DNA of 14,723 nt from Chloroflexota bacterium (GTDB lineage: Bacteria > Chloroflexota > DTOL01 > DAOUCN01): the NCBI GenBank assembly GCA_034431995.1, contig DAOUCN010000211.1, positions 1 to 14,723 of the forward strand, in the 5' to 3' direction. Both the position numbers and the translations under genes were made by a program. Under the pieces are notes generated by a model that saw only the letters and a program-made list of their open reading frames with translations, was not told the DNA's origin and ran no database searches. This document shows positions 22 to 14,723 of this stretch, piece after piece (position 1 is the first letter of the stretch; every line of letters starts with the position of its first letter).

Positions 22-1236
22 TTAGGGGGGAGAACCCCTGGCGCAACGAAAGCCGAGGCTGTTGTCGACGCCCGCCGGGGTGTCGCCGCCGCGACCGGCA
101 GAGCGCGCGCTGTCCTGGGGGTGGCCCCACGAGCCGCCGCGCACCACGCGAAACGTCCCGGAAGAAGGCCCCGTCGGGTTGCGCGCTGGCGCGCTCGTGT
201 AGTACTTCTCGTCGTACCAGTCCGCCACCCACTCCCACACGTTCCCCGCCATATCGGCGCAGCCATAGGGACTGTCGCCGTGCGGCGAATAGGCCCCCAC
301 CGGTGTCGTGTCGCCGGCGCCGCCCTCTTCCGTATTGCACCGCATCATGTCGAAGTCATCGCCCCAGGGATAGATGCGCCCGTCTGTGCCCCGCGCCGCC
401 TTCTCCCACTCGGCCTCCGTGGGCAGCCGCCAGTCCTGCCCCGTCTTCTGGCGCAGCCAGCGGCAGTAGGCCACGGCATCATGCCACGACACGTTGACCA
501 CTGGGTGCCGCTCCTTGCCCCGCGGCGGTCTCCCGCCCTCCCAGTGATTGGGCGCCCGATGGCCACTGTCTTGCACGAAAACGGCATATTCGGCGTTGGT
601 CACCGGGTATTTGCCGATAGCATACTCGTCCAGATAGACCCCGTGCTGCGGCTTCTCGTCTTCGCAGGCATCCAGGTCTAGATGGTGCCACCTCTGCGGC
701 CTCTCACATGAGTGTGCCTGGCTGTGGCTGTCAGCGGACCCCATCAGGAACTCCCCAGCTGGAATCGTAATCATCTCAGGTACGCCTAGCTCGCGCCGCC
801 TGCGCTCTTCCTCGGCCCGTCGCCGCGCCTCCTCTTCGGCCGCGTCCCGCTGCCGCTCTTCCTCCGCCCTCCGGCGCGCCTCCTCTTCGGCCGCGGCCCG
901 CTCCCGGTCTTCTGCCTCCCGCGCCAGCGGCGCGGCGCACTCCTCGCACATGTTCCACGCCGCGACGCGGTGGGTCTTGTGCAGGAACGCCCTGCCGCAT
1001 TGCCGGCACTTGAAGCTGTCCTCTAGCTTCACCCATTCGCCGCAGATCTCGCAGTAGCCGCCGGCAGGTGCGGCGGGTGGGGCGGCCCCTGGCCCCCCGA
1101 TGATGATCTGCTCGCCCTTGATGACGCCGATGTCGCCGACGAGCGGGCCGGCCTGCGGCTTCGGCATCTTGGTGCCGCACTCGGGGCAGAACTTGGCGTC
1201 GGTAGGGACGTCTCGACCACAATTCGGGCAAAGCAT
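22..1236 (-). CDS. Protein with two zinc ribbons, a charged single-alpha-helix spacer and an FGE/SUMF1-like (formylglycine-generating-enzyme fold) domain; the domain is probably non-catalytic.
   Basis: The 404-aa ORF has an ATG at 1234-1236 preceded by GAGGTGAC (reverse complement of 1237-1244) acting as the ribosome-binding site. The N-terminus carries CPNCG-x10-CPECG and CEICG-x11-CRQCG motifs. The C-terminus carries FGE-fold signatures: HPVVNVSWHDAVAYCRWL, WRLPTEAEWEKAARG, GNVWEWVADWY, RVVRGGSW and a GFRCAR ending. No CxxxxC pair follows GGSW, whereas catalytic FGEs have one (for example GGSYLCHDSYCNRYR). The stop TAA is at 22-24. Confidence 0.85.
   Translation of the reverse strand: MLCPNCGRDVPTDAKFCPECGTKMPKPQAGPLVGDIGVIKGEQIIIGGPGAAPPAAPAGGYCEICGEWVKLEDSFKCRQCGRAFLHKTHRVAAWNMCEECAAPLAREAEDRERAAAEEEARRRAEEERQRDAAEEEARRRAEEERRRRELGVPEMITIPAGEFLMGSADSHSQAHSCERPQRWHHLDLDACEDEKPQHGVYLDEYAIGKYPVTNAEYAVFVQDSGHRAPNHWEGGRPPRGKERHPVVNVSWHDAVAYCRWLRQKTGQDWRLPTEAEWEKAARGTDGRIYPWGDDFDMMRCNTEEGGAGDTTPVGAYSPHGDSPYGCADMAGNVWEWVADWYDEKYYTSAPARNPTGPSSGTFRVVRGGSWGHPQDSARSAGRGGDTPAGVDNSLGFRCARGSPP
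800..900 (-). repeat. A 51-bp tandem duplication (2 copies) encoding a 17-aa E/R-rich unit.
   Basis: gcgcctcctcttcggccgcg occurs at 825-844 and at 876-895, an offset of 51 bp. It encodes AAEEEARRRAEEERQRD AAEEEARRRAEEERRRR within the spacer of the zinc-ribbon/FGE-like protein. Confidence 0.85.
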
Positions 1237-1345
1237 GAGTCACCTCGCCCTAGCCATTTCTATGATCGCTGTCTCACTCGCGCGCGAAGGAGCGAAAGGG
1301 ATTTCCCTTCCGCCTTGCGTTCCACACGGCAAGCCTGCTGCGTGG

Positions 1346-1915
1346 TCACTCCGCGACCACGCCCAAAATCCACAGCCCGTCAACCAGCAAGAACGCGCCG
1401 TAGCTCAGCGCCAGCAGGTCGGGCTTTCCACTGGCGGGGGGCGCTATCAGACTGACGCTCCCCACGCATATCACGAGCAGGGCCAACTTGGCCAGTAGGG
1501 CAAGACCAAGGGCCTGCATGCGCCGGGCGTGCTGGCCTGAACTCCGGATCATGTCGTTGTCCAGTATATCTGATAGGACATTTGCCATGAAGAGGCCAAG
1601 CACACCCGACAGCAGCACATACATGATCCAGGATTGAATGAGGGGCGCTGGGTTCATCCGCTTCAGCAGCAGCCCGCCAGATGCCCACTCCACCGTTCCG
1701 ACGCTGATGACGACGCTGCCCACCATGAACAAGAAGGCAATCAGTGAAGCGGCGATAGCTGCCCATGGCACTTGGTGCGCCCGGGATCTGATGATGCGCA
1801 CGCCAAACAGGACCGCAGCAAGGGCACCTAGTCCCTTCATAAACATCTGCACCGTTGCTTCGGCCACGATTTCGGCGATGATCTCGCGCACAAGGCTAGC
1901 GACGTCTAGAGACAT
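1346..1915 (-). CDS. Small polytopic integral membrane protein (about 5-6 predicted transmembrane helices); function unknown.
   Basis: The 189-aa ORF is dominated by hydrophobic segments (LGALAAVLFGV, AAIAASLIAFLFMVGSVVISV, LIQSWIMYVLLSGVLGLFMANVL, ALGLALLAKLALLVICVGSVSLIA, LLALSYGAFLLVDGLWILGVV). Its ATG at 1913-1915 sits 2 nt after the stop of the upstream SPFH gene (TAG cc ATG), with GAGG 7 nt upstream. Confidence 0.7.
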   Translation of the reverse strand: MSLDVASLVREIIAEIVAEATVQMFMKGLGALAAVLFGVRIIRSRAHQVPWAAIAASLIAFLFMVGSVVISVGTVEWASGGLLLKRMNPAPLIQSWIMYVLLSGVLGLFMANVLSDILDNDMIRSSGQHARRMQALGLALLAKLALLVICVGSVSLIAPPASGKPDLLALSYGAFLLVDGLWILGVVAE

Positions 1916-1917
1916 GG

Positions 1918-3999
1918 CTACGCCTCATTGAAGAACTTCTCGCCACAGTTCTTGCAGTACTTGGTGCCCACAGGCGACTCCACGCCACACTTGCGGCAGA
2001 CAACCACGCGCGTCGGCCCTTGGCCGCCTCCGCCTTCGCCGCCCGACACCGTCTGCGCGCCGCCGGGCGTGACGATGACGGTGGGAGCGCTGCGGTCGCG
2101 GGCAAAGGCGGTGGCCGTGTCCCGCTGCGAGGCCATAGCCTCCCGATGCATGCGCTCTATCGTCTGAATGGCGTCGAGCAGGATCTTCGTTTGCTCGTCC
2201 TTCGATGCTTTGGTCACCTCCAGCACGCGCTCCAGCAGAGCCGTCTGCTGTTCGGCAGGCAGGCTCCGCAGAGTCGCCAGGGCCCGCGCGGCTTCTGGGG
2301 ACCTCTCGGCGGCCTCGGCCAGGATCTGCTCCGCCGACATACCCTTCCGTATCTCCATCTGCCGCAGGTTGACGATCAGTTGGGCGCGCTGCGGGTCGCT
2401 TTCCGCGATCACTACCTCGGCTGGGGCCCCTGCCAACGCCCGAATGCGTTCCATGTTCTGCCGGTGTTGCTCGGCTTCTTCCCTCAGTCGTCGCTCCAGG
2501 GCGAGCTCGTCGCGTTCTGCCTCGATCAGCATTTCCTCACGCTGCACCTTGAGCTTGCGGGCATCCATCAGCTCCAATGCCCGCACGCCGAGCTGGACGT
2601 CCAACCAGTCCTGCTCGCGCTCGATGGCATCAATCTCTGCCTGCGTTTTCGCCTCTGTCAGTCGGTGCTGCAACTCGATCTGTCTTGCCTCGATCTCGGT
2701 CTTCTTGCGCTCGAGAGTCTGGATGCGCTCCTCATTGATCTGGGCCCGCAGCTCCATCTCCCGTCGTTTGAGGCGCAGCTCCAGCAACTCGTTTTCGCCT
2801 TCCAGCTCCATGCGGTCGAGCTCTTTCTGGCGTTCGATCTCCAGCTTGCGCACCAGGTAGCGTCGCTGCAGCTCGTGGTCTTCGCGCTCTTCAGCAAAGC
2901 TGCGCTTGAGATCCTCAAACTCCTTATCGGAGATCAGTCTTGCCCTGTCCTGTTGCCGTAGGAATGCCTCCAGCTGGTCTTCCGAGCGGATCTCATCCAT
3001 CCTGTCCGAAAGCACAGCCGCCCGCATCCTGGCCCAAACCGCCGCTCGCCGCTCGTACTGCTCGACCTTCGCCGTCTCTTCAGCGATGGCCTGGATCTCC
3101 CGCTCGTTGAGAACATCCGCCAGCCGCTTCCGGCCAGACAGATCCGCTTCCTCGCGGGTGATCTGCACGAAGTAGTCTTCCTTCACCTTGCGCACCGCGT
3201 CCCAGCGCTCGTGGCGGAAGTTGAGGGTGCTGACGCGCTCGAAGGTGAGCCCCAGGCTCTTGAAGGTCTCCCGCAGATGGGCTTCGATGAAGGTGGCGAG
3301 CTCATCCTTGATAGCCAGATTGCTGCTCAGCTCGGCCACGGAGTGACGGGCAACGGCCTCGGCGGCAGCATTCTCAATCTCGGGCTTGAGGTACTCCGCC
3401 AACATGCTGCGGCTCACCGTTCGCTGCCCCTTCATCATGTTGACCAGGAAGAGGACGGCGTTGTTGATACGGGTGACCAGACGGCAGTCCAAGGTCATGG
3501 CCAGCGGGTCACTCGTATAGAGGCCGGAGATGGGAAACTCCAACACGACATCCCCCACGTCCACGAGGATGGCGGTTACAGTCTTGGCATGCCCCAGCAG
3601 GGGGACGTGGGAGAACGCAGTGTCCATGGTGTAGGGCCCGGGAGGCAGCTCGCCGGCTTCGTTGCGACCGTCCACCAGCAAGATGGCGCGCGTGCCTGCT
3701 TCCACGATCAGTTCCTTGCGGAAGAAGCCGGGGACGTCGTCCACCTCGATGCGGGCAGCAAAGTCATCGGGGCTTTTGGCCCAGCGATGACCCGACATGG
3801 CCGGCGCGACGGCGCCTGAGAGTTGTTTGCCGCATGCCGGGCAGAAGGTCGCATCTCCCGACACGGGCGCGCCACAGTGCGGGCAGGTACGCTGACCGGT
3901 ACCGGTTGGCTTGCCGCACTGAGGGCAGAAGCTGTAGTCTTTCTCCAGTTGGGTGCCACAATGGGGGCATTTCGCCTTGCCGATGCCAAAGATATTCAT
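1918..3999 (-). CDS. Protein with an N-terminal double zinc ribbon, an SPFH/Band-7 (Band_7_1-like) domain, a long flotillin-like coiled coil and a C-terminal zinc ribbon.
   Basis: The 693-aa ORF has CPHCG-x10-CPQCG and CPHCG-x10-CPACG motifs at aa 11-57. An FFRKELIVEAGTRAILLVDGRNEAGELPPGPYTMD... block, typical of Band_7_1-type SPFH domains, follows. About 280 aa of E/R/L-rich heptad coiled coil come next (ELQRRYLVRKLEIERQKELDRMELEGENELLELRLKRREMELRAQ...). The C-terminus ends with CRKCG-x10-CKNCG. The ATG at 3997-3999 is preceded by AAAAGGGG, and it lies 4 nt after the stop of the upstream gene. Confidence 0.85.
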   Translation of the reverse strand: MNIFGIGKAKCPHCGTQLEKDYSFCPQCGKPTGTGQRTCPHCGAPVSGDATFCPACGKQLSGAVAPAMSGHRWAKSPDDFAARIEVDDVPGFFRKELIVEAGTRAILLVDGRNEAGELPPGPYTMDTAFSHVPLLGHAKTVTAILVDVGDVVLEFPISGLYTSDPLAMTLDCRLVTRINNAVLFLVNMMKGQRTVSRSMLAEYLKPEIENAAAEAVARHSVAELSSNLAIKDELATFIEAHLRETFKSLGLTFERVSTLNFRHERWDAVRKVKEDYFVQITREEADLSGRKRLADVLNEREIQAIAEETAKVEQYERRAAVWARMRAAVLSDRMDEIRSEDQLEAFLRQQDRARLISDKEFEDLKRSFAEEREDHELQRRYLVRKLEIERQKELDRMELEGENELLELRLKRREMELRAQINEERIQTLERKKTEIEARQIELQHRLTEAKTQAEIDAIEREQDWLDVQLGVRALELMDARKLKVQREEMLIEAERDELALERRLREEAEQHRQNMERIRALAGAPAEVVIAESDPQRAQLIVNLRQMEIRKGMSAEQILAEAAERSPEAARALATLRSLPAEQQTALLERVLEVTKASKDEQTKILLDAIQTIERMHREAMASQRDTATAFARDRSAPTVIVTPGGAQTVSGGEGGGGQGPTRVVVCRKCGVESPVGTKYCKNCGEKFFNEA

Positions 4000-4003
4000 G
4001 GTC

Positions 4004-5680
4004 TCACGCCCCTTTTAGAAGTGCATTCCGCTTGATGATCATGTTGCGCAGGTCCTGGAGGGCGATCTCCAGCTTGCGCGCTTGAACCTCCACGTCGCCG
4101 GGCATATCCTCGACCACTCTGCGGTACATGGTCTGGCTGGTGTCTGCAGCGTCCTGGGCCTGCTGCAGGAGGGCGTCGTTCAGGTCGAGAATGCGGCGCA
4201 GGTCATCGAGATTGACCTGCTTGCGGGCCAAAAGGGTTGATTGGGCGTAGGTGCTGGCGCGCAGCTCGTCCTGCAGATCGGGGACGGCCTTGGCCAGTGA
4301 GCGCAATGCCGTCGCCAGGTTCTGTAGCGGGCTGCGGAAGGCCCGCGTCCAGGCTTCCTCCAGGTTGGATCTCACTCGCCCCAGGTGACCAGCCACCTCA
4401 GCGTTGACCATCTGCATGGCCGCCAGGCGCCGGGCCGGGCTGAGGCGGTCCTCCTCAGCACGGGCCAGGTTCTCGCGCCGGCGTGCCCGTGCCTTCCCCT
4501 CGTACCAGAAGCTCCAGACGAAGGCGATCACCGCCAGGACGATGCCAACCACACAGGTGATGATCTGCGGCAGGCGGGGGTCGGCGAAGAGCTGTGGCAT
4601 CACGGTATAGGCCAAGGTCGTGCCCAGCACAATAATGCTCCCCACAGCCCGCAGGATGTTGACCCAGCGGCGCAACTCCTCGATGACGGCGTCGCGCTTC
4701 TCGTCTTTTGGCTCCTTGTACCCGGCCTTCTTGAGCATCTCCTCAAAGCGGCCAAGCAGTTGCTCTTGCTGGCTGGCCAGCTTCTTGTCCAGGGCCTTCA
4801 CCAGTTGGTCTACGGCCTTCCCCACTTCAGGTGGCGTAGGCTTTCGCTCTTCGGCCAGCGGTTTCTTCTCCCCTGCCACCGGCTTGGGCTCCTCGGCAGG
4901 GGGCGGGCCCGCCATCTCCCGCCTGACCTCCGCTAGTTCGTCCTGGCGGAGAGCATCGCGTAGTCCGTACTCGTGCTCGATCTGCCGCAGGGTGTCCTGG
5001 AACTCCCGCTCGGTGCGCGCCGCCTCCAGGCGTGCTCTCACCTCGGCCTTCTGCAGATCGTTGCGCAGGCGGTGGATGGCCTCGACCCGGCGCACGGCTT
5101 CCTCCTGGGTGACGAAGGAAGGGCGTCCGGCCTCGAGCAGGGCAAGCCCCGCCGATTCCAGATAGGCGCGTGCTGGCCCATGGATCGCAGCTCCTATCTG
5201 CTGGGCAACCGTCTCGCTGCCGCACAGATCGCCAGCCACGAACTGACGAGCGGCGGCAGCCAGAGGAGCCGCGATACTGGACGCCAGGCGCCCCGCCAAC
5301 TCGCCGACCGTGAGGTAGGTGCGGCTCTCGTCGAGAGCCTGGAAAAGCCGGACGGGATCGCTCGCTTGCACGCGCACGAGCAAGTTGGCGACCAGCGCTT
5401 GCTTGTCGCCGCTGAAGACGCCGCTCACCTCCGGAACGAGGTATGCGGGTCTTGTGTCCACTAGGCCGATGTCGTCGGGCAGGCCGCCCCACGCCCAGCC
5501 GACCCGATGGCGCCCAGGCCCTAGGACGGTGGCCTGCCCCCTGCGTACCACGATGCCCTGCTGGCCCGGTCCCACGTCCAGCGTCTTAGTGATGACGCCG
5601 GGCAGGTTCTCCGGGTGGACGCGCCGCACCAGGACCTCCGTGCCCTGGCCGTCGGCGGGTGACTGCGTGTCGTTCATCAT
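4004..5680 (-). CDS. Divergent SPFH/Band-7-like coiled-coil protein with an internal hydrophobic hairpin (membrane anchor).
   Basis: The 558-aa ORF has a strong ribosome-binding site: AGGAGGAAACAC (reverse complement of 5681-5692) immediately before the ATG at 5678-5680. The N-terminal region (GQQGIVVRRGQATVLGPGRHRVGWAWGGLPDDIGLVDTRPAYLV) follows the same G..a.vvr.G....L.PG.H pattern as the SPFH domain of the downstream gene. Two hydrophobic segments lie at aa ~344-362 and 371-392 (nt ~4505-4651), flanked by helical/coiled-coil regions. The stop TGA is at 4004-4006. Confidence 0.75.
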   Translation of the reverse strand: MMNDTQSPADGQGTEVLVRRVHPENLPGVITKTLDVGPGQQGIVVRRGQATVLGPGRHRVGWAWGGLPDDIGLVDTRPAYLVPEVSGVFSGDKQALVANLLVRVQASDPVRLFQALDESRTYLTVGELAGRLASSIAAPLAAAARQFVAGDLCGSETVAQQIGAAIHGPARAYLESAGLALLEAGRPSFVTQEEAVRRVEAIHRLRNDLQKAEVRARLEAARTEREFQDTLRQIEHEYGLRDALRQDELAEVRREMAGPPPAEEPKPVAGEKKPLAEERKPTPPEVGKAVDQLVKALDKKLASQQEQLLGRFEEMLKKAGYKEPKDEKRDAVIEELRRWVNILRAVGSIIVLGTTLAYTVMPQLFADPRLPQIITCVVGIVLAVIAFVWSFWYEGKARARRRENLARAEEDRLSPARRLAAMQMVNAEVAGHLGRVRSNLEEAWTRAFRSPLQNLATALRSLAKAVPDLQDELRASTYAQSTLLARKQVNLDDLRRILDLNDALLQQAQDAADTSQTMYRRVVEDMPGDVEVQARKLEIALQDLRNMIIKRNALLKGA

Positions 5681-5692
5681 GTGTTTCCTCCT
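5681..5692 (-). promoter_or_regulatory. Shine-Dalgarno sequence (AGGAGGAAACAC) for the SPFH-like gene.
   Basis: The reverse complement of gtgtttcctcct is AGGAGGAAACAC, directly abutting the ATG at 5678-5680. AGGAGG ends 6 nt before the start. Confidence 0.75.
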
Positions 5693-5710
5693 ATCCGATT
5701 GACGGCAGCA

Positions 5711-7753: not shown

Positions 7754-7757
7754 AACA

Positions 7758-7766
7758 CCCCTCCCT
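7758..7766 (-). promoter_or_regulatory. Shine-Dalgarno sequence (AGGGAGGGG) for the receptor kinase gene.
   Basis: The reverse complement of cccctccct is AGGGAGGGG, with 4 nt before the ATG at 7751-7753. Confidence 0.7.
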
Positions 7767-7991
7767 ATCACGATGCATCCCCGTTCGTGAGAGCGCTTGG
7801 CAGCCGACGGGGGCAGAGTCTCCGCCGGAGGCTGGAGTTAGCCTCGGCCAGCTTGATGACTGCAGCTCGCAGGCTTGCTCGGCCTGCCGTGGCGCCCGGC
7901 CAGGCAGGCCCGAGCGGCTGGCTTACGGCTGCCGGATGCAGCTCCCCATGGGAGGTGCTATGTGTCGCGAAACCCAACGCTGCCCGCCGCC

Positions 7992-10900
7992 TCACGACCC
8001 GCGACCCCCTGGCAGTATTCCCCACACCATGATCGTACCGTCAGTGGACCCCGAGGCGAGGGTTTTGCCATCGGGGGCGAAGGCCACGTAGTGCACAGTG
8101 GCTGTATGCCCGCTGAGGGTGCGCAGCTCCTTGCCGCTGGCCACGTCCCAGAGTCTCACGGTGGCGTCATACGACCCTGAGGCCAGGGTTTTGCCATCGG
8201 GGGCAAAGACCACGCTGTGCAGATAGCTCGTGTGCCCGCTGAGGGTGCGCAGTTCCTTGCCGCTGGCCACGTCCCAGAGTCGCACGGTCTTGTCATACGA
8301 CCCCGAGGCGAGGGTTCTGCCATCGGGGGCGAAGGCCACGCTGTACACATAGCTCGTGTGCCCGCTGAGGGTGCCCACCAGGCTGCCGTCGCTCACCCGC
8401 CACAGGCGCACGGCGTTGTCATGCGACCCCGAGGCCAGGGTTTGCCCATCGGGCGAGAAGCAGACGCTACACACCGCCTTCATATCGCCGCCCGCGAAGA
8501 GCTGCTCGAGAATGCCAGGCCTAACAACACGCGCGCGCCAATCCTCGGCTGCCCGCCACAATCGCACAGTATTGTCCTCCGAACCCGAGGCGAGGGTTTT
8601 GCCATCGGGGGCGAAGGCCACGCTGTGCACATAGCTCGTGTGCCCGCTGAGGGTGCGCAGCTCCTTGCCCCTGGCCACGTCCCAGAGACGCAGGGTGTAG
8701 TCGTCGGACCCTGAGGCCAGGGTTTTGCCATCGGGGGCGAAGGCCACGCTGTACACATAGCTTGTGTGTCCGCTGAGGGTGCGCAGTTCGCGGCCCGTGG
8801 CCACGTCCCAGAGACGCAGGGTCTTGTCGTCGGACCCTGAGGCCAGGGTTTTGCCATCGGGGGCGAAGGCCACGCTGTGCACATAGCTCGTGTGCCCGCT
8901 GAGGGTGCGCAGCTCGCGGCCAGTGGCCACGTCCCAGAGCCTCACGGTCCTGTCGGACGACCCTGAGGCCAGGGTTTGGCCATCGGGGGCGAAGGCCACG
9001 CTCTGCAGATAGCTCGTGTGCCCGCTGAGGGTGCGCAGTTCCTTGCCGCTGGCCACGTCCCAGAGTCGCACGGTCTCGTCGGACGACGCTGAGGCCAGGG
9101 TTCTGCCATCGGGGGAGAAGGCCACGCTGATCACATAGCTCGTGTGCCCGCTGAGGGTGCGCAGCTCCTTGCCGCTGGCCGCGTCCCAGAGTCTCACCGT
9201 GTTGTCATGCGACGCGGAGGCCAGGGTTTTGCCATCGGGGGCGAAGGCGACACTGAACACACCGCCAGTGTGCTTCTTGAAGACATGCACTTCCTTCCCG
9301 CTGGCCGTTTCCCACAACCGGACTGTCTTATCATCTGCACCTGAGGCCAGGAGCCGCCCATCAGGGGAGAAAGCCACGCTCGTCAGTGCTGCCGGTGCCC
9401 AGATAAGAGTCACTTCTGTCATGGTCTGGGCATCGTAGACGCAGAGGCAGCCAGACTCGCAAGCAACGGCCAGCCATCGGCCGTCGGCCGACCACGTCAC
9501 TTGCTTGGGCGTGCCCTTGCCCAACCGTGCTATTGGCCCAACGTCAGCCCCGTTGTCTGGCACGATAATCGGGAGCAGCGATCGGCCCTTGGTCAGAATG
9601 CTTAGCTTCAATGGCGTCAAGCGAGGATCTCCGGGAGCCGCGCGCTCCAGTCTCCTCAACTCGGCCAGGGCTGCTGCGACATCGGCATCCAGCAAGGACG
9701 TCACTTTCGCATACTGGTGCTCCCTGGCTTGCTGCAGCTCTCGTTCTGCCGCCTGAGCCTCTTGGCGTAGGTCATGTAGCCCTGGATAGTCCCTCTGCAC
9801 CGTCTCTATCTCTGCCAGCAGTGTCAGGGCGAGACCGGGAAGTGTTCTCGCTACTGCCTTGGCCTGGGCAAATCGCTCTGCGAGGCGTCGTTGTTGTTCG
9901 GCCTGAGCCTTGTGGAGGAGGTCGCGTAGCCCTGGATAATCTTCCCGCTCTTTCCGAATTTGCGCTGCTATCTCTAGTGCCCGCGCCGGCTTGTTCTCTA
10001 CTACTTTCTCTGCCTCGGCAAAGAGGCCGGCCAAGCGCTGTTCGCGCTCTGCGGCCTGGGCCTGCTGCCGAAGCTCCGCGAGTCCCGGATAGTCGGCCTG
10101 TTCCTTCTCGATTTCCGCCAGCGCCTTCAGCGCCTCTGTTGGTTGATTGTCCAGTGCTTTCTCCGCCCGGGCAAACAGCGCGGCCAAGCGCTGTTCTCGC
10201 TCTGCGGCCTGGGCCTGCTGCCGAAGCTCCGCGAGTCCCGGATAGTCGGCCTGTTCCTTCTGGATGTCCGCCAGAGCCTTCAGCGCCTCAGTTGGTTGTG
10301 TGTGCAATGCCTGCTCCGCCTGGGCAAAGAGTGTCGCCAGGCGCCGCTCGCGTTCCCGCAGAGCCGCCTCGGCTTGCTGGCGGAGGTCCTGCAACCCCAC
10401 GTAATCCGCCTGCTCCCGCTCTATCTGCGCCAGTAGCTCCAGCGCGCGGGGTGGGTCGGTCTTTGCTGCGCGGGCGGCCTCACCGAACAGCTGCTTGAGG
10501 CGCTGCTCCCGGGCAGCTTGGGCCTTCTTCTGCGCGGCCTCGGCCTTTTGCCGCAGTTCTGCAAGCGCCGGGTAGTCCGGTTGCTCCTGTTCTATCTGCA
10601 TCACCAGCTCGAGTGCGCCACTCGGGTTATCCTGCACCAATCGCTCTGCCTCGACGAAGACTCTGGCCAGGCGGCGGTCACGCTCCCGTAGGGCTGAAAG
10701 GGCCTGCTGGCGTAGCTCCTGCAGCCCCGGATACGCCGGCTCCTCTTTCTCCAGCTCGGAGAGCGCCTGCAGCGTTTGAGCCGGTTTTCCCTCCACCGCT
10801 GCCTTTGCTTCGGCAAACATGCCAGCCAACCTCCGTTCTCGTTCTGCCGCCTGGGCCTGCTGCCGAAGCTCTGACAGGCCAGGATAGTCTCCCTGCTCCT

Positions 10901-12539
10901 TCTCGATTTCCGCCAGCACTGCCAGAGCTCGTGCCGGCTCCTTGCTGACTGCCTTCTCAGCCTCTGCGAACAAGGCCGCTAAGCGCTGGCTTAGAGCTTG
11001 TAGTGCCGTGTGGGCCCGCTGGCCAAGATCCAAGAGCCCCGCATAGTCCGTCTGCTCCTCCTGAATCTTGGCCACTAGCTCCAGGGCTCGTTTTGGGCTG
11101 GTTTGCACCGCCTGCTGCGCCTCGGCAAAGAGTCTCGCCAGGCGGCGCTCGCGTTCCCGTAGAGCCGCCTGGGCTTGATGGCGCAGGTCCTGCAACCCCA
11201 CGTAGTCCGGCTGCTCCCTCTCTATCTGCGCCAGTAGCTCCAACGCGCGCTCTGGTGCCTTCTCCACTGCTTTCTTCGCCTCGGCAAACCGCTGAGCAAG
11301 GTGGCGGTCTCGCTCCGCCACAGCCCGCTGTCGCAGGTCCTGTAGCCCGGGGTAGTCCTCTTGTTCTCTATGAATCTGCGCCAGGACTTCCAGCGCCCGT
11401 ATCGGGTCAGACTTGACTGCCAGCTCCGCATCGGCAAATAGCCTTGCCAGGCGTCGCTCTGTCTCCAATACCATTTCTGGAGTGAGGCGAGTTGGCTCGC
11501 TCTTCATTGTACGATCGGTCTGCGCCACTGCACTGACCGGCTGCTGCCCTTGTGGTTGCCCTCGCCCTTTTGCTTTCGGTCGCCGTGTGACACCCACCTG
11601 CCCGTGTGTTTGTGTGGTTGGCATGTGCAGCCTATCCGCCTCTTCCTGCTGTCTTGCTCCTGAACGGGCTATCTCCTTGCCACCGCCGCCCCGCACCTGC
11701 TCTTGGACCGCATTCGCTTCCTCTGGCAGGGTCATGAAAGCGTCCAGGACCTGGGCCAGCTCTTTCCCACTTTGTGGCCGCTGCGCTGGATCCTTGGCCA
11801 GCACCCGCGCAACCGCTGCCGCCAGTGGAGCGGGCACATCGGGCCGCACACTGTCCAGCGGTGGCGGCACTTCCGTCAGGTGCTTGCGCATCACGCCGGC
11901 TGGCGTCTTGCCAGGAAAGAGGGTGTGCCCCGCCAGCATCTCCCACAGGATCACGCCCACGGCGTAGACATCGCTGGCGGGGGTGGCCTCGGCTTCTTCC
12001 CAGATCTCCGGGGCGATGTAGCCGGGCGTGCCCACCATGCCGCCGGAGCCGGTGAGGCTGGCCCAGGCCAGGGCCTTGACCAACCCGAAGTCGGTGAGCA
12101 CCGCCCGGTCCTCATCGTCCACGATGATGTTCTGGGGCTTCACGTCCCGGTGCAGGAAGTCCCGTTGGTGGGCATAGCCCAGGGCCTCGGCCACTTGGCG
12201 GGCAATGCTCACCGCCCGTTCCACAGGCAAGGGGCCCTCAGCGATCATCTTATCCAGGCTGCGGCCGGGCAGGAACGTCATGTCAATGTAGGGCTGCCCC
12301 TGCTCTTCGCCCACCTTGTTGATGTGGACGATATTTGGGTGCTCCAGGTTGGCAGCCGCCTGCGCCTCGCGGACGAAGCGCTCCTGGGCTGCGGGATTGC
12401 TGAGCAAGCCCGCGTGCATGATCTTGAGCGCCACGATGCGATTTAGGGTCAGGTCACGAGCCTTGTACACCGTGGCGAAGGACCCGCTGTCAACCTTCTC
12501 GATGATCTCGTAGGGGCCGAAACGCTTGGTGTCTGTCAT
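7992..12539 (-). CDS. Giant cytoplasmic Hanks Ser/Thr kinase fused to 11 copies of a ~50-aa helical (TPR-like) repeat and about 12 WD40 repeats; PkwA-like architecture.
   Basis: The ORF encodes 1515 aa. The N-terminal kinase has GSFATVYKA, IVALKIM, HRDVKPQNIIV, TDFGLVKA and GTPGYIAPE. No hydrophobic transmembrane segment is present. Eleven copies of LFAEAEKAV..P..ALE.LA.IEKEQ.DYPGL.ELRQQAQAAERE.RLA follow at nt ~9960-11510. About twelve WD40 units with LSGHTSYVHSVAFAPDGKTLASGSDDKTLRLWDVATGRELRT follow at nt ~7995-9560. The start ATG at 12537-12539 overlaps the upstream stop as ATGA. Confidence 0.9.
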   Translation of the reverse strand: MTDTKRFGPYEIIEKVDSGSFATVYKARDLTLNRIVALKIMHAGLLSNPAAQERFVREAQAAANLEHPNIVHINKVGEEQGQPYIDMTFLPGRSLDKMIAEGPLPVERAVSIARQVAEALGYAHQRDFLHRDVKPQNIIVDDEDRAVLTDFGLVKALAWASLTGSGGMVGTPGYIAPEIWEEAEATPASDVYAVGVILWEMLAGHTLFPGKTPAGVMRKHLTEVPPPLDSVRPDVPAPLAAAVARVLAKDPAQRPQSGKELAQVLDAFMTLPEEANAVQEQVRGGGGKEIARSGARQQEEADRLHMPTTQTHGQVGVTRRPKAKGRGQPQGQQPVSAVAQTDRTMKSEPTRLTPEMVLETERRLARLFADAELAVKSDPIRALEVLAQIHREQEDYPGLQDLRQRAVAERDRHLAQRFAEAKKAVEKAPERALELLAQIEREQPDYVGLQDLRHQAQAALRERERRLARLFAEAQQAVQTSPKRALELVAKIQEEQTDYAGLLDLGQRAHTALQALSQRLAALFAEAEKAVSKEPARALAVLAEIEKEQGDYPGLSELRQQAQAAERERRLAGMFAEAKAAVEGKPAQTLQALSELEKEEPAYPGLQELRQQALSALRERDRRLARVFVEAERLVQDNPSGALELVMQIEQEQPDYPALAELRQKAEAAQKKAQAAREQRLKQLFGEAARAAKTDPPRALELLAQIEREQADYVGLQDLRQQAEAALRERERRLATLFAQAEQALHTQPTEALKALADIQKEQADYPGLAELRQQAQAAEREQRLAALFARAEKALDNQPTEALKALAEIEKEQADYPGLAELRQQAQAAEREQRLAGLFAEAEKVVENKPARALEIAAQIRKEREDYPGLRDLLHKAQAEQQRRLAERFAQAKAVARTLPGLALTLLAEIETVQRDYPGLHDLRQEAQAAERELQQAREHQYAKVTSLLDADVAAALAELRRLERAAPGDPRLTPLKLSILTKGRSLLPIIVPDNGADVGPIARLGKGTPKQVTWSADGRWLAVACESGCLCVYDAQTMTEVTLIWAPAALTSVAFSPDGRLLASGADDKTVRLWETASGKEVHVFKKHTGGVFSVAFAPDGKTLASASHDNTVRLWDAASGKELRTLSGHTSYVISVAFSPDGRTLASASSDETVRLWDVASGKELRTLSGHTSYLQSVAFAPDGQTLASGSSDRTVRLWDVATGRELRTLSGHTSYVHSVAFAPDGKTLASGSDDKTLRLWDVATGRELRTLSGHTSYVYSVAFAPDGKTLASGSDDYTLRLWDVARGKELRTLSGHTSYVHSVAFAPDGKTLASGSEDNTVRLWRAAEDWRARVVRPGILEQLFAGGDMKAVCSVCFSPDGQTLASGSHDNAVRLWRVSDGSLVGTLSGHTSYVYSVAFAPDGRTLASGSYDKTVRLWDVASGKELRTLSGHTSYLHSVVFAPDGKTLASGSYDATVRLWDVASGKELRTLSGHTATVHYVAFAPDGKTLASGSTDGTIMVWGILPGGRGS
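8040..9310 (-). repeat. Near-identical 126-bp tandem DNA repeats; these are the in-frame WD40 blade units of the kinase gene.
   Basis: Blocks such as ccctgaggccagggttttgccatcgggggcgaaggccacgctgtgcacatagctcgtgtgcccgctgagggtgcgcagctccttgccgctggccacgtcccagag recur at 126-bp spacing (for example 8066 vs 8192) with only a few substitutions. Confidence 0.9.
9960..11470 (-). repeat. Tandem repeats with a period of about 150-153 bp; these are the in-frame ~50-aa helical repeats of the kinase gene.
   Basis: For example 10020-10140 and 10170-10290 are almost identical (gccaagcgctgttc.cgctctgcggcctgggcctgctgccgaagctccgcgagtcccggatagtcggcctgttccttct.gat.tccgccag...). Further copies occur at ~10840-10930, ~11140-11230 and elsewhere. 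Confidence 0.85.
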
Positions 12540-13915
12540 GCTCGCAGTCCCTCCGGCAAGGCCAGGCTGAGCACGTCATGTGCCAGACGGGCCAGTTCTG
12601 CTATATCATCCTTGCGCTGTAGCGCCAGCAGGCGCAGGTGCGCCAGGCGCGAATCCACGTTCAGGCGGGGCGAGTGGACGACCACCCGCTGCAAGTCGCT
12701 GCTAGAGAGGCGGTCAAGGCGGTAGCTCACATTGGCAGCGATGGCCACGGCATAGGGCAGGCACAAAGGGCCGAGGCGCACCTCCAGGTCCCGCAGCAGG
12801 AGATAGCCCACCACGTAGGGCAGGGGCTGGCCAAAGGCCTTCTCGACGCCGTGGTTCACTGCCTCTGGGCACTGGTGCAGGGTCAGCACGGCGGTATGAA
12901 GCTGTTCCGAGGTGGGATGCTCCTCAATGAACAGGACCTCCAGGGCGGTCCAGATGCGCAGCACGGCGTCCATTTCCTCGTGGGAGCGTGCCTGCTTCTG
13001 CAGCTCGACCAGGGGCGGCCAGACCGCGATCAGCGTATGGCGCACCAGAGGCCATGGCCGGCCCTGTTCGGCGGCCAGACAGCCCATCAAGTGATGCTCG
13101 ACCCAGGTGGCCCAGCCCTCCTCGAGCAAGAGCGATGATCCGTAGAGCACGGCATTCTTCTCGGCGAGCAGTATGCCTTCAGGTGTGTCGGCCGGTCGAA
13201 AGTCGAAACGCCGCGCCAGCTCGTAACGCCAGGCGCCCAATCGCTTCTTCTCTTCCCCTAGGGCCGTACCCTCGGTCACAAAGCCGTGTCCCATCTTCTC
13301 ATGGACGGCCGTGGCCAGGATGGCGGGGAGGACGGCCGGGTCGCGCAGAGCCGCCTCCGCGTCCGGGGCGCGGCCATGAGCGAAGAGCCAGCCGTTGAGA
13401 TAGCAGCCGCGACCGGGCAGAAACATCCCGTACCTTCCACCGCCCTTGCTCGCCTGCGCCTCCGCCTGCGCCATCATCTCCTCCAGATAGGCCATTTTTG
13501 TTGCTTCCGAGACGTCCATCATCTCCACCTGCGGCCAGAAGAACTCCTCCAGTGTTGTGCAGTAGACGGTGGGCAGGCTGAAGAGCGCCAGTCTGGGCAG
13601 ATAGCGGGCCAAATCGAACCGCTCAGCCATGACGTCATCCAGGTGGCGAAGGGCGGGATCGTGTGCGAGGGCGATGTGCGCTGAGGCAGGCGCAACCGCG
13701 CCAGCCGCCTGCTGGGGGAGGCGAGCGGCAAGGGCCGACGCGCTCCGCCTCTGATGAGCCTCAATCTGAGACTGGATGCGCGCTTCGTACTCGCTCAGCC
13801 GCTGCTCCAGGCTGGCGTCTGAGAAGGATGGCGCGCCTCGTGTGCCCAGGCGCCGTCGCATCAGGGCATCCAGACGTTCCTCGAATCGTCGTTCCATGTC
13901 TTCGAGTGTAGACAT
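12536..13915 (-). CDS. Hypothetical protein of about 460 aa, function unknown; its stop is coupled to the kinase start.
   Basis: I place the start at the ATG at 13913-15, which begins MSTLEDMERRFEE. It is preceded by the purine-rich GAGGAAAGGAGAAAA (reverse complement of 13921-13935). The ORF track's longer N-terminal extension to 14098 lacks a ribosome-binding site and overlaps the upstream gene. The protein is mainly predicted helical and contains an HEKMGHGF segment (HExxxH spacing, not the canonical HExxH). I recognise no confident homology. The stop TGA at 12536-38 overlaps the ATG of the kinase gene. Confidence 0.6.
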   Translation of the reverse strand: MSTLEDMERRFEERLDALMRRRLGTRGAPSFSDASLEQRLSEYEARIQSQIEAHQRRSASALAARLPQQAAGAVAPASAHIALAHDPALRHLDDVMAERFDLARYLPRLALFSLPTVYCTTLEEFFWPQVEMMDVSEATKMAYLEEMMAQAEAQASKGGGRYGMFLPGRGCYLNGWLFAHGRAPDAEAALRDPAVLPAILATAVHEKMGHGFVTEGTALGEEKKRLGAWRYELARRFDFRPADTPEGILLAEKNAVLYGSSLLLEEGWATWVEHHLMGCLAAEQGRPWPLVRHTLIAVWPPLVELQKQARSHEEMDAVLRIWTALEVLFIEEHPTSEQLHTAVLTLHQCPEAVNHGVEKAFGQPLPYVVGYLLLRDLEVRLGPLCLPYAVAIAANVSYRLDRLSSSDLQRVVVHSPRLNVDSRLAHLRLLALQRKDDIAELARLAHDVLSLALPEGLRA

Positions 13916-13920
13916 TCCGG

Positions 13921-13935
13921 TTTTCTCCTTTCCTC
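13921..13935 (-). promoter_or_regulatory. Purine-rich Shine-Dalgarno region (GAGGAAAGGAGAAAA) for the hypothetical gene.
   Basis: The reverse complement of ttttctcctttcctc is GAGGAAAGGAGAAAA. It lies 5 nt upstream of the ATG at 13913-13915 and supports the internal start over the longer ORF-track start. Confidence 0.6.
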
Positions 13936-13968
13936 TGGGCTCATCCCTGTCCTCTGGGCTCATCCCTG
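13931..13968. repeat. Perfect 2 x 19-bp tandem direct repeat spanning the stop codon of the zinc-ribbon gene and the leader of the next gene.
   Basis: tcctctgggctcatccctg lies at 13931-13949 and again at 13950-13968. On the minus strand this reads CAGGGATGAGCCCAGAGGA twice. The upstream copy contains the CAG GGA TGA end of the upstream gene, and the downstream copy abuts the AAGGAGAAAA ribosome-binding site. Confidence 0.9.
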
Positions 13969-14625
13969 AATGGGCTGGCCGCAAGTCGGACAATGGCGCG
14001 CGGTCGTGCCCTCTGGCAGCGCGTTGAGGCAATGGGGGCAGAGACGGGCGTGGCATGATGGGCACTGCGCCTCCCCCGGCTTCAGCGCCACACCGCACAT
14101 CGGGCAGGCACGGCCCTGCTCCTTGCTCGTATCCGCTGGGGCAATGAGGCGTCTACCGCCTGCAACCAGTGTGTCCGTGACATCGCCAGCGGGAATGCCC
14201 GGCGCCGGTGTCGCCGGCACACCTGGCCCGCCGCCCACGCTGCTGCGCACGAGCACAGAGCCTTCAATGTTGGTGGTCTGCGCTCCTGGCGCCACGTACT
14301 GCTTGGCGTTGATGATGACGACCTGGGGCCGCTGTTCCCGGGCGCGCCAGACAGCCAGGACCGGCACCGAGCTTTCGACGGTTCGCTGCGTGGTGTTGCC
14401 GGCCTCGTCCTGGTAGCTCACCTCGATATCCAGGGGTGTCGCATCCCCGGCTTTGTGGGGAGCCAGACGGAACTCCAGCATCGCCTGCTGACGGGGTGCA
14501 AGCCGACGATGCTTTCTCTCCAGATCGCCCTCGTAGTCGCCGCGAACCACCACCCTGATCTCTCTCGCGACGCCAAATCCCTCATTCTGCAGAGTGACCC
14601 GCAGCCGGTTGAATTCCCTGACCAC
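13960..14625 (-). CDS. Protein with an N-terminal beta-rich domain and a C-terminal double zinc ribbon.
   Basis: The 221-aa ORF begins at a GTG at 14623-25. The frame stays open upstream to a stop at 14689-91, but no ATG lies in between. The C-terminal 49 aa (nt ~13963-14109) carry CPMCG-x10-CPSC and CPHC-x14-CPTCG motifs. The N-terminal two-thirds alternate hydrophobic and polar residues in a beta-strand-like pattern (VTLQNEGFGVAREIRVVVRGDY..., LDIEVSYQDEAGNTTQRTV). The start codon choice is uncertain. Confidence 0.6.
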   Translation of the reverse strand: MVREFNRLRVTLQNEGFGVAREIRVVVRGDYEGDLERKHRRLAPRQQAMLEFRLAPHKAGDATPLDIEVSYQDEAGNTTQRTVESSVPVLAVWRAREQRPQVVIINAKQYVAPGAQTTNIEGSVLVRSSVGGGPGVPATPAPGIPAGDVTDTLVAGGRRLIAPADTSKEQGRACPMCGVALKPGEAQCPSCHARLCPHCLNALPEGTTARHCPTCGQPIQG

Positions 14626-14723
14626 GAACTGTCCCTCGGCCGCGAGTGAGAGCGCTGGCAGCCTGCGGTAGCGGATTACTTTACCATATCAGCGCTGGCA
14701 GTCCTCTTCGCAGCCCTCATCAG

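Follow-up and report, generated by a model that had tools for sequence, protein, structure and literature searches.

SPFH assemblies partner proteases in several settings, among them HflKC-FtsH, stomatin-NfeD and prohibitin-mAAA. SPFH proteins build 24-mer cages (cited in PMC10936438), and in the archaeal Meth_adaptin and Halo_adaptin loci an SPFH-coiled-coil-zinc-ribbon protein is found together with winged-helix, ESCRT-III-like and Vps4 proteins and with PQQ/WD40 and Ig-like adaptors, one of which has a zinc ribbon (Makarova et al. 2024, PMC10936438); Ser/Thr kinases (STKs) accompany other archaeal ESCRT loci (PMC10936438). PspA is linked to Band-7 proteins and zinc ribbons in ydjFGHL (PMC11237479). 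Kinase-lectin proteins are known targets of diversity-generating retroelements (DGRs; Vallota-Eastman 2020, PMC7517822; Doré 2024, PMC10907252), and neither of these papers mentions SPFH, zinc-ribbon or zincin partners. SPFH scaffolds, Hanks kinases, DGR-diversified lectin-fold receptors and the Vps4/ESCRT-III machinery have each been studied separately; here we describe a family of loci, present in at least four phyla, that joins them. Our starting point is the Chloroflexota contig DAOUCN010000211.1, a complete NCBI contig of 14,723 nt with a GC content of about 65% (hereafter the window), in which eight open reading frames (ORFs) on the minus strand, designated g1 to g8, occupy nearly the whole length.

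The family is organised around a core of three products, the predicted zincin g7, the membrane-anchored SPFH protein g4 and the zinc-ribbon SPFH protein g3, which is usually preceded by an adaptor of the g8 type and surrounded by variable arrays of Hanks kinases, each with a different sensor module. Its modules are all known, but their combination has not been described before. A first-pass annotation of the window had read it as a membrane-microdomain kinase signalling or invader/stress-sensing module; the kinases are indeed linked, but the conserved heart is the zincin with the SPFH hetero-pair, and the kinases are its variable periphery. The idea that these genes belong together, and are not neighbours by chance, has fared better, since a search for a lack of conserved synteny found the synteny to be conserved across phyla.

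The evidence for this organisation comes from comparative analysis in both directions. The 39 homologues of g3 lie on contigs that repeatedly carry a kinase, an SPFH paralogue and the zinc-ribbon SPFH protein, often accompanied by kinase-FGE fusions and kinase-WD40 proteins, and a genome scan from g3 returned 22 loci. Hosts belong to Anaerolineae, Chloroflexia, other Chloroflexota, Acidobacteriota, Planctomycetota and Lentisphaerota, mostly filamentous or aggregate-forming lineages; one of the scan loci (L016, 3.2 kb) comes from a metagenome-assembled genome labelled Syntrophomonadaceae. The reciprocal search, from homologues of g7, found the same neighbours in three of four contexts (L034, L035 and L037), while in the fourth (L036) a Vps4-like AAA ATPase and an STK-FGE protein adjoin the g7 homologue and the SPFH pair is absent. 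A metagenome scan from g7 added 56 further loci, and the triad zincin–SPFH with transmembrane (TM) segment–zinc-ribbon SPFH recurs across the related loci.

When the domains of the window were mapped onto six-frame ORFs of 28 non-redundant loci, a kinase lay within 5 kb of the core in 20, and in 13 of the 14 loci with flanks of at least 5 kb on both sides; FGE domains were present in 17. Kinase genes were co-directional with the core in 55 of 60 cases (92%; p = 1e-11), and their density fell from 2.1 per 10 kb at 0-2 kb from the anchor to 0.8 at 8-10 kb. A larger sample of 52 non-redundant loci of at least 9 kb contained SPFH proteins of the g3 type in 44, STKs in 43, the zincin in 35, FGE in 27, and PQQ adaptors and AAA ATPases in 22 each. 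SPFH proteins of the g4 type were detected by BLAST in 21 of them (and in more by profile), followed by the helix-turn-helix (HTH) protein (20), the hairpin protein p242 (16), VWA proteins (11), the helical protein p215 (9) and reverse transcriptases (RTs; 5). The nearest kinase to the core was a median of 516 nt away, with 21 loci having one within 500 nt and 35 within 2 kb.

Two SPFH/flotillin-like proteins had been proposed for the window, and both assignments hold, one from Pfam directly and the other through comparison of families. The first, g3 (positions 1918-3999, minus strand, 693 aa), is a soluble protein without a TM helix, in which Pfam recognises two N-terminal zinc ribbons (3820-3975), a Band_7 domain (3229-3705; 40 bits against PF01145, for which the cut-off is 23.6) and, beyond a long coiled coil, a C-terminal zinc ribbon (1936-1998); the ribbon cysteines are all invariant in close homologues. 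The suggestion that these proteins belong to Band_7_1 (PF13421) fails, there being no match to that family. The second, g4 (4004-5680, minus, 558 aa), is a divergent paralogue with an SPFH-like N-terminus (residues 16-200, approximately), a coiled coil, a TM hairpin at residues 342-391 (4508-4657 in the window) and a C-terminal helical domain. Alone it matches nothing in Pfam. When g4 is grouped with the genes in the same position at 11 other loci, however, the resulting g4 family aligns by hhalign with the SPFH part of the g3 family (99.4%, E 2e-21), and nine of its 12 members match Band_7 (PF01145); a 522-aa gene in the g4 position of a distant locus (L035) is a full-length g4 homologue (E 5e-38). 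Because the g4 family matches both the g3-family SPFH region and Band_7, we regard g4 and g3 as an SPFH hetero-pair, in which g4 is predicted to be the membrane anchor and g3 its soluble, zinc-ribbon-capped partner.

The third member of the core, which had been left undescribed among the eight genes of the first-pass annotation, is g7 (12536-13915, minus, 459 aa), a predicted cytoplasmic zinc metallopeptidase of the zincin fold. It has long helices N-terminally, no TM helix and no AAA domain, and carries an HEKMGH motif at residues 205-210 (13286-13303) and an EE pair at residues 265-266 (13118-13123); the putative metal motif is invariant. Its top structural matches are peptidases of the M1, M4 and M61 families together with 3cmn, FtsH not being among them. 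Searches of the PDB with the sequences of g7 and g4 produced nothing meaningful. The zincin family is rare, with 209 representatives (E ≤ 0.001) among 1.84 billion clusters. Upstream of it, g8 (13960-14625, minus, 221 aa) comprises a beta-rich domain (residues 1-130) and two C-terminal zinc ribbons (C174-C215), the latter supported by Pfam matches and by CxxC pairs. By blastp its N-terminus matches the C-terminal parts of PQQ proteins in L001, L014, L022, L033, L034 and L035, and g8 is a short form of the C-terminal module of the proteins of about 880 aa, with PQQ propeller, TPR, beta domain and zinc ribbon, that precede the zincin in relatives.

The two kinases of the window differ in where they would sense. 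The product of g5 (5711-7771, minus, 686 aa) is a receptor Hanks kinase, with a kinase domain at residues 19-266 (PF00069, 178 bits, E 2.9e-52), a TM helix at 307-325, a Pro/Thr-rich linker and three extracytoplasmic beta repeats of about 96 aa with TDNTG anchors. In L015 the gene immediately after the g3 homologue is an orthologue of g5; the kinase domains are 62% identical and the C-terminal domains 57%. The product of g6 (7992-12539, minus, 1515 aa) is a cytoplasmic Hanks kinase without a TM helix, in which the kinase (residues 10-256; PF00069, 161 bits, E 4.8e-47) is followed by a helical array (approximately 350-960), in which a unit of about 51 aa marked by a DYPGL motif occurs 11 times, and by a WD40 region (approximately 1000-1510; E 6e-147) comprising 11 Pfam stretches and 11 V/L-R-L-W anchors. 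The VALK, HRD, DFG and APE motifs are intact in both proteins, which are therefore predicted to be active kinases. The helical array of g6 (9660-11492, minus, 11 tandem copies) matches no Pfam repeat family, and its unit of about 51 residues may be an undescribed TPR-like repeat.

A third potential sensor is not attached to a kinase. The 404-aa product of g1 (22-1236, minus) is cytoplasmic and combines zinc ribbons and a charged coiled coil with a domain of the C-type-lectin fold that resembles the formylglycine-generating enzyme (FGE-sulfatase; 37-783, minus; PF03781, 203.8 bits, E 4.8e-60). This domain matches FGEs in the PDB at E 1e-27 to 1e-32, the best match being ToxD (7spq), and also aligns with CalU17 and with the DGR variable protein TvpA (2y3c, E 2e-15). 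When aligned to the Streptomyces coelicolor FGE (6muj, 2q17), both catalytic cysteines (LCHxSYC) stand opposite gaps in g1, which reads GGSWGHPQDSAR, and the domain is in all probability catalytically dead. Relatives of g1 that combine zinc ribbon and FGE were found in L018 and L027. As the catalytic cysteines are missing, and as the equivalent domain contains a DGR variable region in three relatives, we consider it a ligand sensor and not an enzyme. The earlier view of WD40 and FGE-like domains as sensor modules is reasonable in the light of this alignment and of the literature (PMC7159879, PMC13581612).

Those three relatives emerged from self-comparison of the related loci for repeats with base-specific mismatches. 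Complete DGR cassettes, each alongside an RT ORF, occur in L015 (repeats at 5871-5981 and 7524-7634, the RT having a YVDD motif), L031 (18102-18233 and 19822-19953) and L077 (16811-16954, 18484-18627 and 20876-21019, one template serving two targets). Mismatches fall on template adenines in 16 of 16 cases in L015, 14 of 15 in L031, and 14 of 14 and 15 of 15 in L077. The variable region in all three is the C-terminus of a kinase-FGE gene near the SPFH/zincin core, and in L015 the cassette lies immediately upstream of the g4 and g3 homologues and the g5 orthologue; RT fragments are additionally present in L022 and L085. Most of the kinase-FGE fusions at related loci have a TM helix between the two domains and are thus receptor kinases. 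The kinase-FGE gene of L015 (5567-6096) is apparently frameshifted inside the variable region, with RGGAFN...GFRVCAS read in the other frame, possibly an assembly artefact of a hypervariable population.

In the window itself, the C-terminal segment of g1 (40-153, minus), which runs from RGGSW through 23 residues to LGFRCA, has the same length and anchors as the variable regions and template repeats of L015 and L031. Compared residue by residue with those template repeats, it corresponds at every position to the variable-region scaffold that DGRs rewrite in the related loci. Nine of its ten Asn-templated positions have NNC codons, and its adenine content is 0.10 against 0.19 gene-wide. A test of the NNC codons was significant against gene-wide third-position cytosine (p = 0.001), but it is non-discriminating at 65% GC and we have set it aside. 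Repeat and self-comparison screens detected no template repeat, template/variable pair or RT in the window, although only 21 nt of sequence follow the stop codon of g1, and a cassette could lie downstream of it.

Related loci also show that the system is larger than the window, which is part of it, cut by the contig ends. The recurrent order is an HTH_17 protein (p417), p242, an AAA ATPase, in some cases p215 and a second AAA ATPase, the PQQ propeller/TPR/beta/zinc-ribbon protein, the zincin, SPFH(TM), the zinc-ribbon SPFH, a VWA/zinc-ribbon protein and kinases. In the window's own clade (L013 and L039), p417, p242 and the ATPase come directly before the zincin, followed in L039 by an STK and an STK-WD40 protein; the order in L037 is zincin, SPFH, SPFH, STK, STK-WD40. 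The VWA protein, which has a C-terminal zinc ribbon and follows the zinc-ribbon SPFH, is found at 15168-16439 of L035, with equivalents in L022, L023, L025, L026 and L033. One of these loci, L023, comes from a cultured organism, Levilinea saccharolytica KIBI-1 (NZ_LGCM01000055.1), and encodes the HTH protein, p242, a Vps4-like AAA ATPase, a zinc-ribbon protein, a PQQ adaptor, both SPFH proteins, the VWA protein and a kinase-FGE; the zincin was not detected in this locus.

The ATPases of the relatives are single classic AAA domains. Those with an MIT-like N-terminus, located directly after hairpin proteins, include L039:4220-5431, L013:5637-6848, L035:6101-7312, L036:8906-9988 and L042:5560-6681. 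For the type that follows p242 (type 1), a profile of the N-terminal 136 positions, including L039 and L013, was compared with the whole PDB and matched Vps4B best (E 9e-9, covering the MIT domain, linker and start of the AAA domain), then yeast Vps4 (5e-6), the isolated MIT domain of Vps4b (0.003) and archaeal CdvC (0.004). The type that follows p215 (type 2) matches Vps4_C at 29.5 and 27.7 bits (cut-off 21.3), with a weak MIT match. Members of the family in Chloroflexota, Acidobacteriota and their relatives therefore appear, as judged from these profiles, to encode Vps4-like MIT-AAA ATPases. The p215 genes (L017:3265-3879, L033:1290-1991, L036:16258-16905 on the minus strand, L042:4919-5584) encode helical proteins of about 200 aa and each precedes a Vps4_C-bearing ATPase. 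Their matches to Snf7 are near full-length and collinear but sub-threshold, and the top PDB matches of the p215 profile are Snf7 and CHMP3; no tie between p242 and ESCRT-III was found by sequence. The acidic C-terminus of p215 ends in a MIM1-like MIT-binding motif (D..I..GL..I..EL.K).

The triad has an analogue in HflK/HflC-FtsH, with which it shares two adjacent SPFH paralogues, membrane anchoring and a neighbouring gene for a (here predicted) zinc metallopeptidase, and in L013, L039 and L036 a classic-clade AAA gene lies directly upstream of the peptidase. However, g7 is not an M41 peptidase, and its chain includes neither a TM helix nor an ATPase; g3 lacks a TM helix and has zinc ribbons instead, the ATPase of relatives has a Vps4-like MIT domain, and kinases are integral to the locus. 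The hairpin of g4 is in the middle of the protein, so that its SPFH domains would face the cytoplasm, unlike those of the periplasmic HflK/HflC. Membership of HflK/HflC-FtsH was rejected, there being no N-terminal TM anchor in g3 or g4 and no single chain combining TM, AAA and M41.

The ydjG-ydjH-ydjI genes of Bacillus subtilis with pspA (PMC11237479), to which the window had been likened, have in common with it a soluble SPFH protein ending in a zinc ribbon, a separate zinc-ribbon protein and a membrane partner, and, in relatives only, a linked helical ESCRT-III-like protein. The resemblance goes no further, since PF13421, PspA and TPM are all absent: PF01145 is found instead of PF13421, there is no PspA_IM30, TPM or NTF2-like domain, and this locus has an extra SPFH paralogue, zincin, Vps4-like ATPase, kinases and lectin-fold sensors. 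Neither PspA_IM30 nor TPM was present in the window or among the genes called for L001-L011 and L034-L037. The components of the archaeal adaptin loci parallel the relatives' order of HTH/winged-helix protein, hairpin protein, MIT-AAA ATPase, propeller/beta-sandwich/zinc-ribbon adaptor and SPFH/coiled-coil/zinc-ribbon protein. The hosts here are bacterial, however, and the archaeal loci have no counterpart of the zincin, VWA and STK-lectin arrays; the hairpin proteins can be assigned to ESCRT-III only at sub-threshold level, and the ATPase and hairpin genes are not in this contig.

On the sensory side, the DGR-targeted kinase/lectin receptors share with this family the kinase-(TM)-FGE-like architecture that dominates the relatives, three complete cassettes, and filamentous or aggregate-forming hosts, although in the window the lectin fold is fused to zinc ribbons and to no kinase, and there is no RT or template repeat. 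The NTP-dependent conflict systems of Kaur et al. (2020, PMC7159879) share the FGS (FGE-like), VWA, AAA and WD40/TPR domains, the DGR links and the theme of zinc-ribbon kinases, but the MoxR, STAND and DO-GTPase core, effector-associated domains, caspase, trypsin and TIR are all missing here; SPFH appears in that paper in the reference list only. Comparison with PADLOC-DB v2 gave generic kinase matches (PD-T4-6, mad6), a weak match of LeoB to g4 (E 8e-5), generic AAA matches (IetA, TRIP13) and an HTH match (mad1). Identities with PD-T4-6, MADS, BREX-PglW, Iet and Eleos were rejected, as PADLOC and NCBIfam gave generic domain matches only, and a literature search found no description of this gene neighbourhood; the initial impression that no named system fits has thus survived PADLOC, NCBIfam and the literature.

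In proposing a mechanism, we suggest that proteolysis and membrane remodelling are carried out by a machine built on an SPFH scaffold and controlled by sensor kinases. The contig would carry the kinase-rich part of this machine, and we would give the reading roughly an even chance of being correct. Under this model, g4 and g3 would co-assemble like HflK/HflC into a cage or scaffold, here on the cytoplasmic face of the membrane, and the zinc ribbons that almost all soluble partners carry (g8, g3, g1 and, in relatives, the VWA protein) would provide a shared docking module. As HflKC-FtsH and other SPFH-protease pairs suggest, the scaffold would hold or restrain its protease, the zincin g7. Inputs would come from the kinases: g5 would sense an extracytoplasmic ligand through its beta repeats and g6 a cytoplasmic ligand through its helical repeats and WD40 region, with the catalytically dead lectin-fold domain of g1 acting as a third, kinase-less binder. 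Phosphorylation of scaffold, adaptor or protease would then release or activate proteolysis, and in relatives with the Vps4-like ATPase and hairpin protein it may do the same for the remodelling, powered by ATP, of a polymer bound to the membrane. The biological role of such a machine may be immunity, envelope repair or signalling between the cells of a filament. The link to DGRs points towards variable macromolecules as what is recognised; because DGRs hypermutate the equivalent receptor domains in three relatives, the stimulus is most likely a variable macromolecular ligand, either foreign or from a neighbouring cell.

A more specific and more tentative proposal, which we put forward as possible but doubtful, is that the contig represents the distal half of a bacterial ESCRT-like machine, comprising Vps4-like MIT-AAA ATPases, ESCRT-III-like hairpins, a propeller/zinc-ribbon adaptor, an SPFH cage, a zincin and a Hanks-kinase switch that is DGR-hypermutated in some lineages. 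This would be the bacterial counterpart of the archaeal adaptin/SPFH ESCRT, through either ancient homology or transfer. A Vps4-like ATPase appears to be absent from bacteria according to a 2025 review (PMC7619361). Some transfers of Vps4-like ATPases to bacteria were noted in a survey of the PSP system (PMC11237479). If true, an ESCRT-like machine would contradict the current picture, in which bacteria essentially lack regulation of ESCRT-III by Vps4 (PMC7619361).

Several observations weigh against kinase control of an SPFH-scaffolded machine. The window contains no AAA ATPase, hairpin protein, VWA protein, RT or template repeat, and its g2 has no homologue by blastp across 93 related loci. 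Proteins of the g1 type (zinc ribbon and coiled coil, with or without FGE) occur in only about seven of the 52 loci, the type and number of kinases differ from locus to locus, and nine of the 52 have no kinase in the available sequence, four of these with less than 2.5 kb of flank on one side. Even 8-10 kb away from the anchor there are 0.8 kinases per 10 kb, so that the association may partly reflect kinase-rich regions, and the spacers of 220 and 109 nt in the window could hold internal promoters. Much the same facts could be accommodated by two unrelated units, a housekeeping quality-control module of the HflKC/FtsH kind (zincin and SPFH pair) embedded in kinase-rich regions, with the kinases directed at other targets: kinase identity is not conserved, kinase arrays span 10 kb or more, kinase-less loci exist, and the 220-nt spacer separates a g8-g7-g6 block from a g5-g1 block. 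We nevertheless think this quite improbable, given that the window kinases are situated between g7 and g4, inside the triad, with the g7 and g6 reading frames overlapping in an ATGA; that kinases lie inside or against the core in L002, L005, L034, L051, L067 and L075; that 92% of kinases share the strand of the core; and that the association extends across four phyla, including lineages not known as kinase-rich. A zincin family with so few representatives is also ill-suited to housekeeping.

The locus could also be an anti-invader conflict system in which the kinases and lectin-fold protein are receptors for phage or foreign-cell molecules and the zincin (with g2 here) acts as effector, arresting or killing the cell or a filament segment, an idea that overlaps with kinase control of the scaffolded protease. 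It accounts well for DGR hypermutation of adjacent receptor kinases in L015, L031 and L077 and for the largely filamentous or aggregate-forming hosts, DGR-diversified STK-CLec proteins having been proposed as antigen sensors in multicellular bacteria (PMC10907252, PMC7159879). STAND NTPases associated with defence use FGE-like and WD40 domains as sensors (PMC13581612), and peripheral genes that vary by locus are typical of conflict systems. Yet PADLOC matches were confined to generic kinase, AAA and HTH domains, there is no canonical effector (nuclease, TIR, caspase or pore former) and no STAND NTPase, and the neighbourhoods showed no integrase and no defence-island genes apart from an ABC-ATPase/FRG pair in L009; no relatives were found on viral contigs, and the sequence and order of the core are well conserved, unlike those of fast-turnover defence genes. 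On balance, immunity seems an unlikely primary role. We view as slightly less probable an envelope-stress or membrane-repair module of the Psp/YdjI type, in which the SPFH pair recruits ESCRT-III-superfamily polymers to sites of damage and the kinases report the state of the envelope. The parallel between ydjG-H-I/PspA and a soluble SPFH protein with C-terminal zinc ribbon plus zinc-ribbon and membrane partners (PMC11237479, PMC10936438) speaks for it, as do the hairpin proteins with ESCRT-III-like features that adjoin Vps4-like ATPases in relatives; but PspA_IM30, TPM, PspC and Toastrack are absent from the window and from the related loci examined, g3 belongs with PF01145 and not with the YdjI-type PF13421, and both the DGR-diversified receptors and the zincin would be left unexplained.

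If the linkage proves functional, the family would give an output pathway to the orphan kinase-lectin receptors that are numerous in filamentous bacteria and would add a protease to the known partners of SPFH cages; it would also provide a testable bacterial case of an MIT-AAA (Vps4-like) ATPase with a hairpin polymer, bearing on the evolution of ESCRT-type systems. Since Levilinea saccharolytica KIBI-1 is cultured and carries a zincin-less version, parts of the system are directly testable in a usable experimental host.

With regard to the layout of the window, ORF calls agree that all eight genes lie on the minus strand, as first described, and Pfam profile annotation agrees with the earlier calls of named domains in g1, g3, g5, g6 and g8. 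From the 5' end of the gene set, the spacers are 44 nt between g8 and g7, the ATGA overlap between g7 and g6, 220 nt (from a GTG start) or 238 nt (from an ATG) between g6 and g5, 30 nt between g5 and g4, 4 nt between g4 and g3, 2 nt between g3 and g2 and 109 nt between g2 and g1. The short spacers and the overlap had been listed correctly, but the statement that there is only one gap is not quite right, because the second spacer, of 109 nt, separates g2 from g1. Scans of the window for sigma-70 promoters and terminators gave only chance-level results, the Rfam scan found no family in the window, and the folding of the 220-nt spacer is not unusual. Because the window is a whole contig, both of its ends are assembly breaks and the operon may extend past them; the left break is 21 nt beyond the g1 stop and the right break 98 nt upstream of g8. 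At the right end a co-directional ORF fragment stops near 14691, about 30 nt inside the break, and showed no match to the C-terminus of the Vps4-like ATPases. The only DNA repeats in the window are the units of g6, of 126 nt for WD40 and about 153 nt for the helical array. By hydropathy, g2 has five predicted TM helices, g5 has one and g4 has the hairpin, whereas the other proteins have none. The five-helix product of g2 (1346-1915, minus, 189 aa) has no significant Pfam match; the gene occupies the slot where many clades have the VWA/zinc-ribbon gene, to which it is unrelated.

Related contigs (L002, L011, L037, L038, L040 and others) often begin or stop at the edge of the zincin/SPFH block, and repeat-rich or hypervariable neighbours may systematically break short-read assemblies there. 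Finally, in L009/L010 (4565-9344 and 11810-13264) a distant relative of g3 is found beside an FRG-domain protein, an AAA_15/AAA_21 ABC-type ATPase and a protein with a weak FHA match, and this is the only locus that hints at a defence-island-like context.

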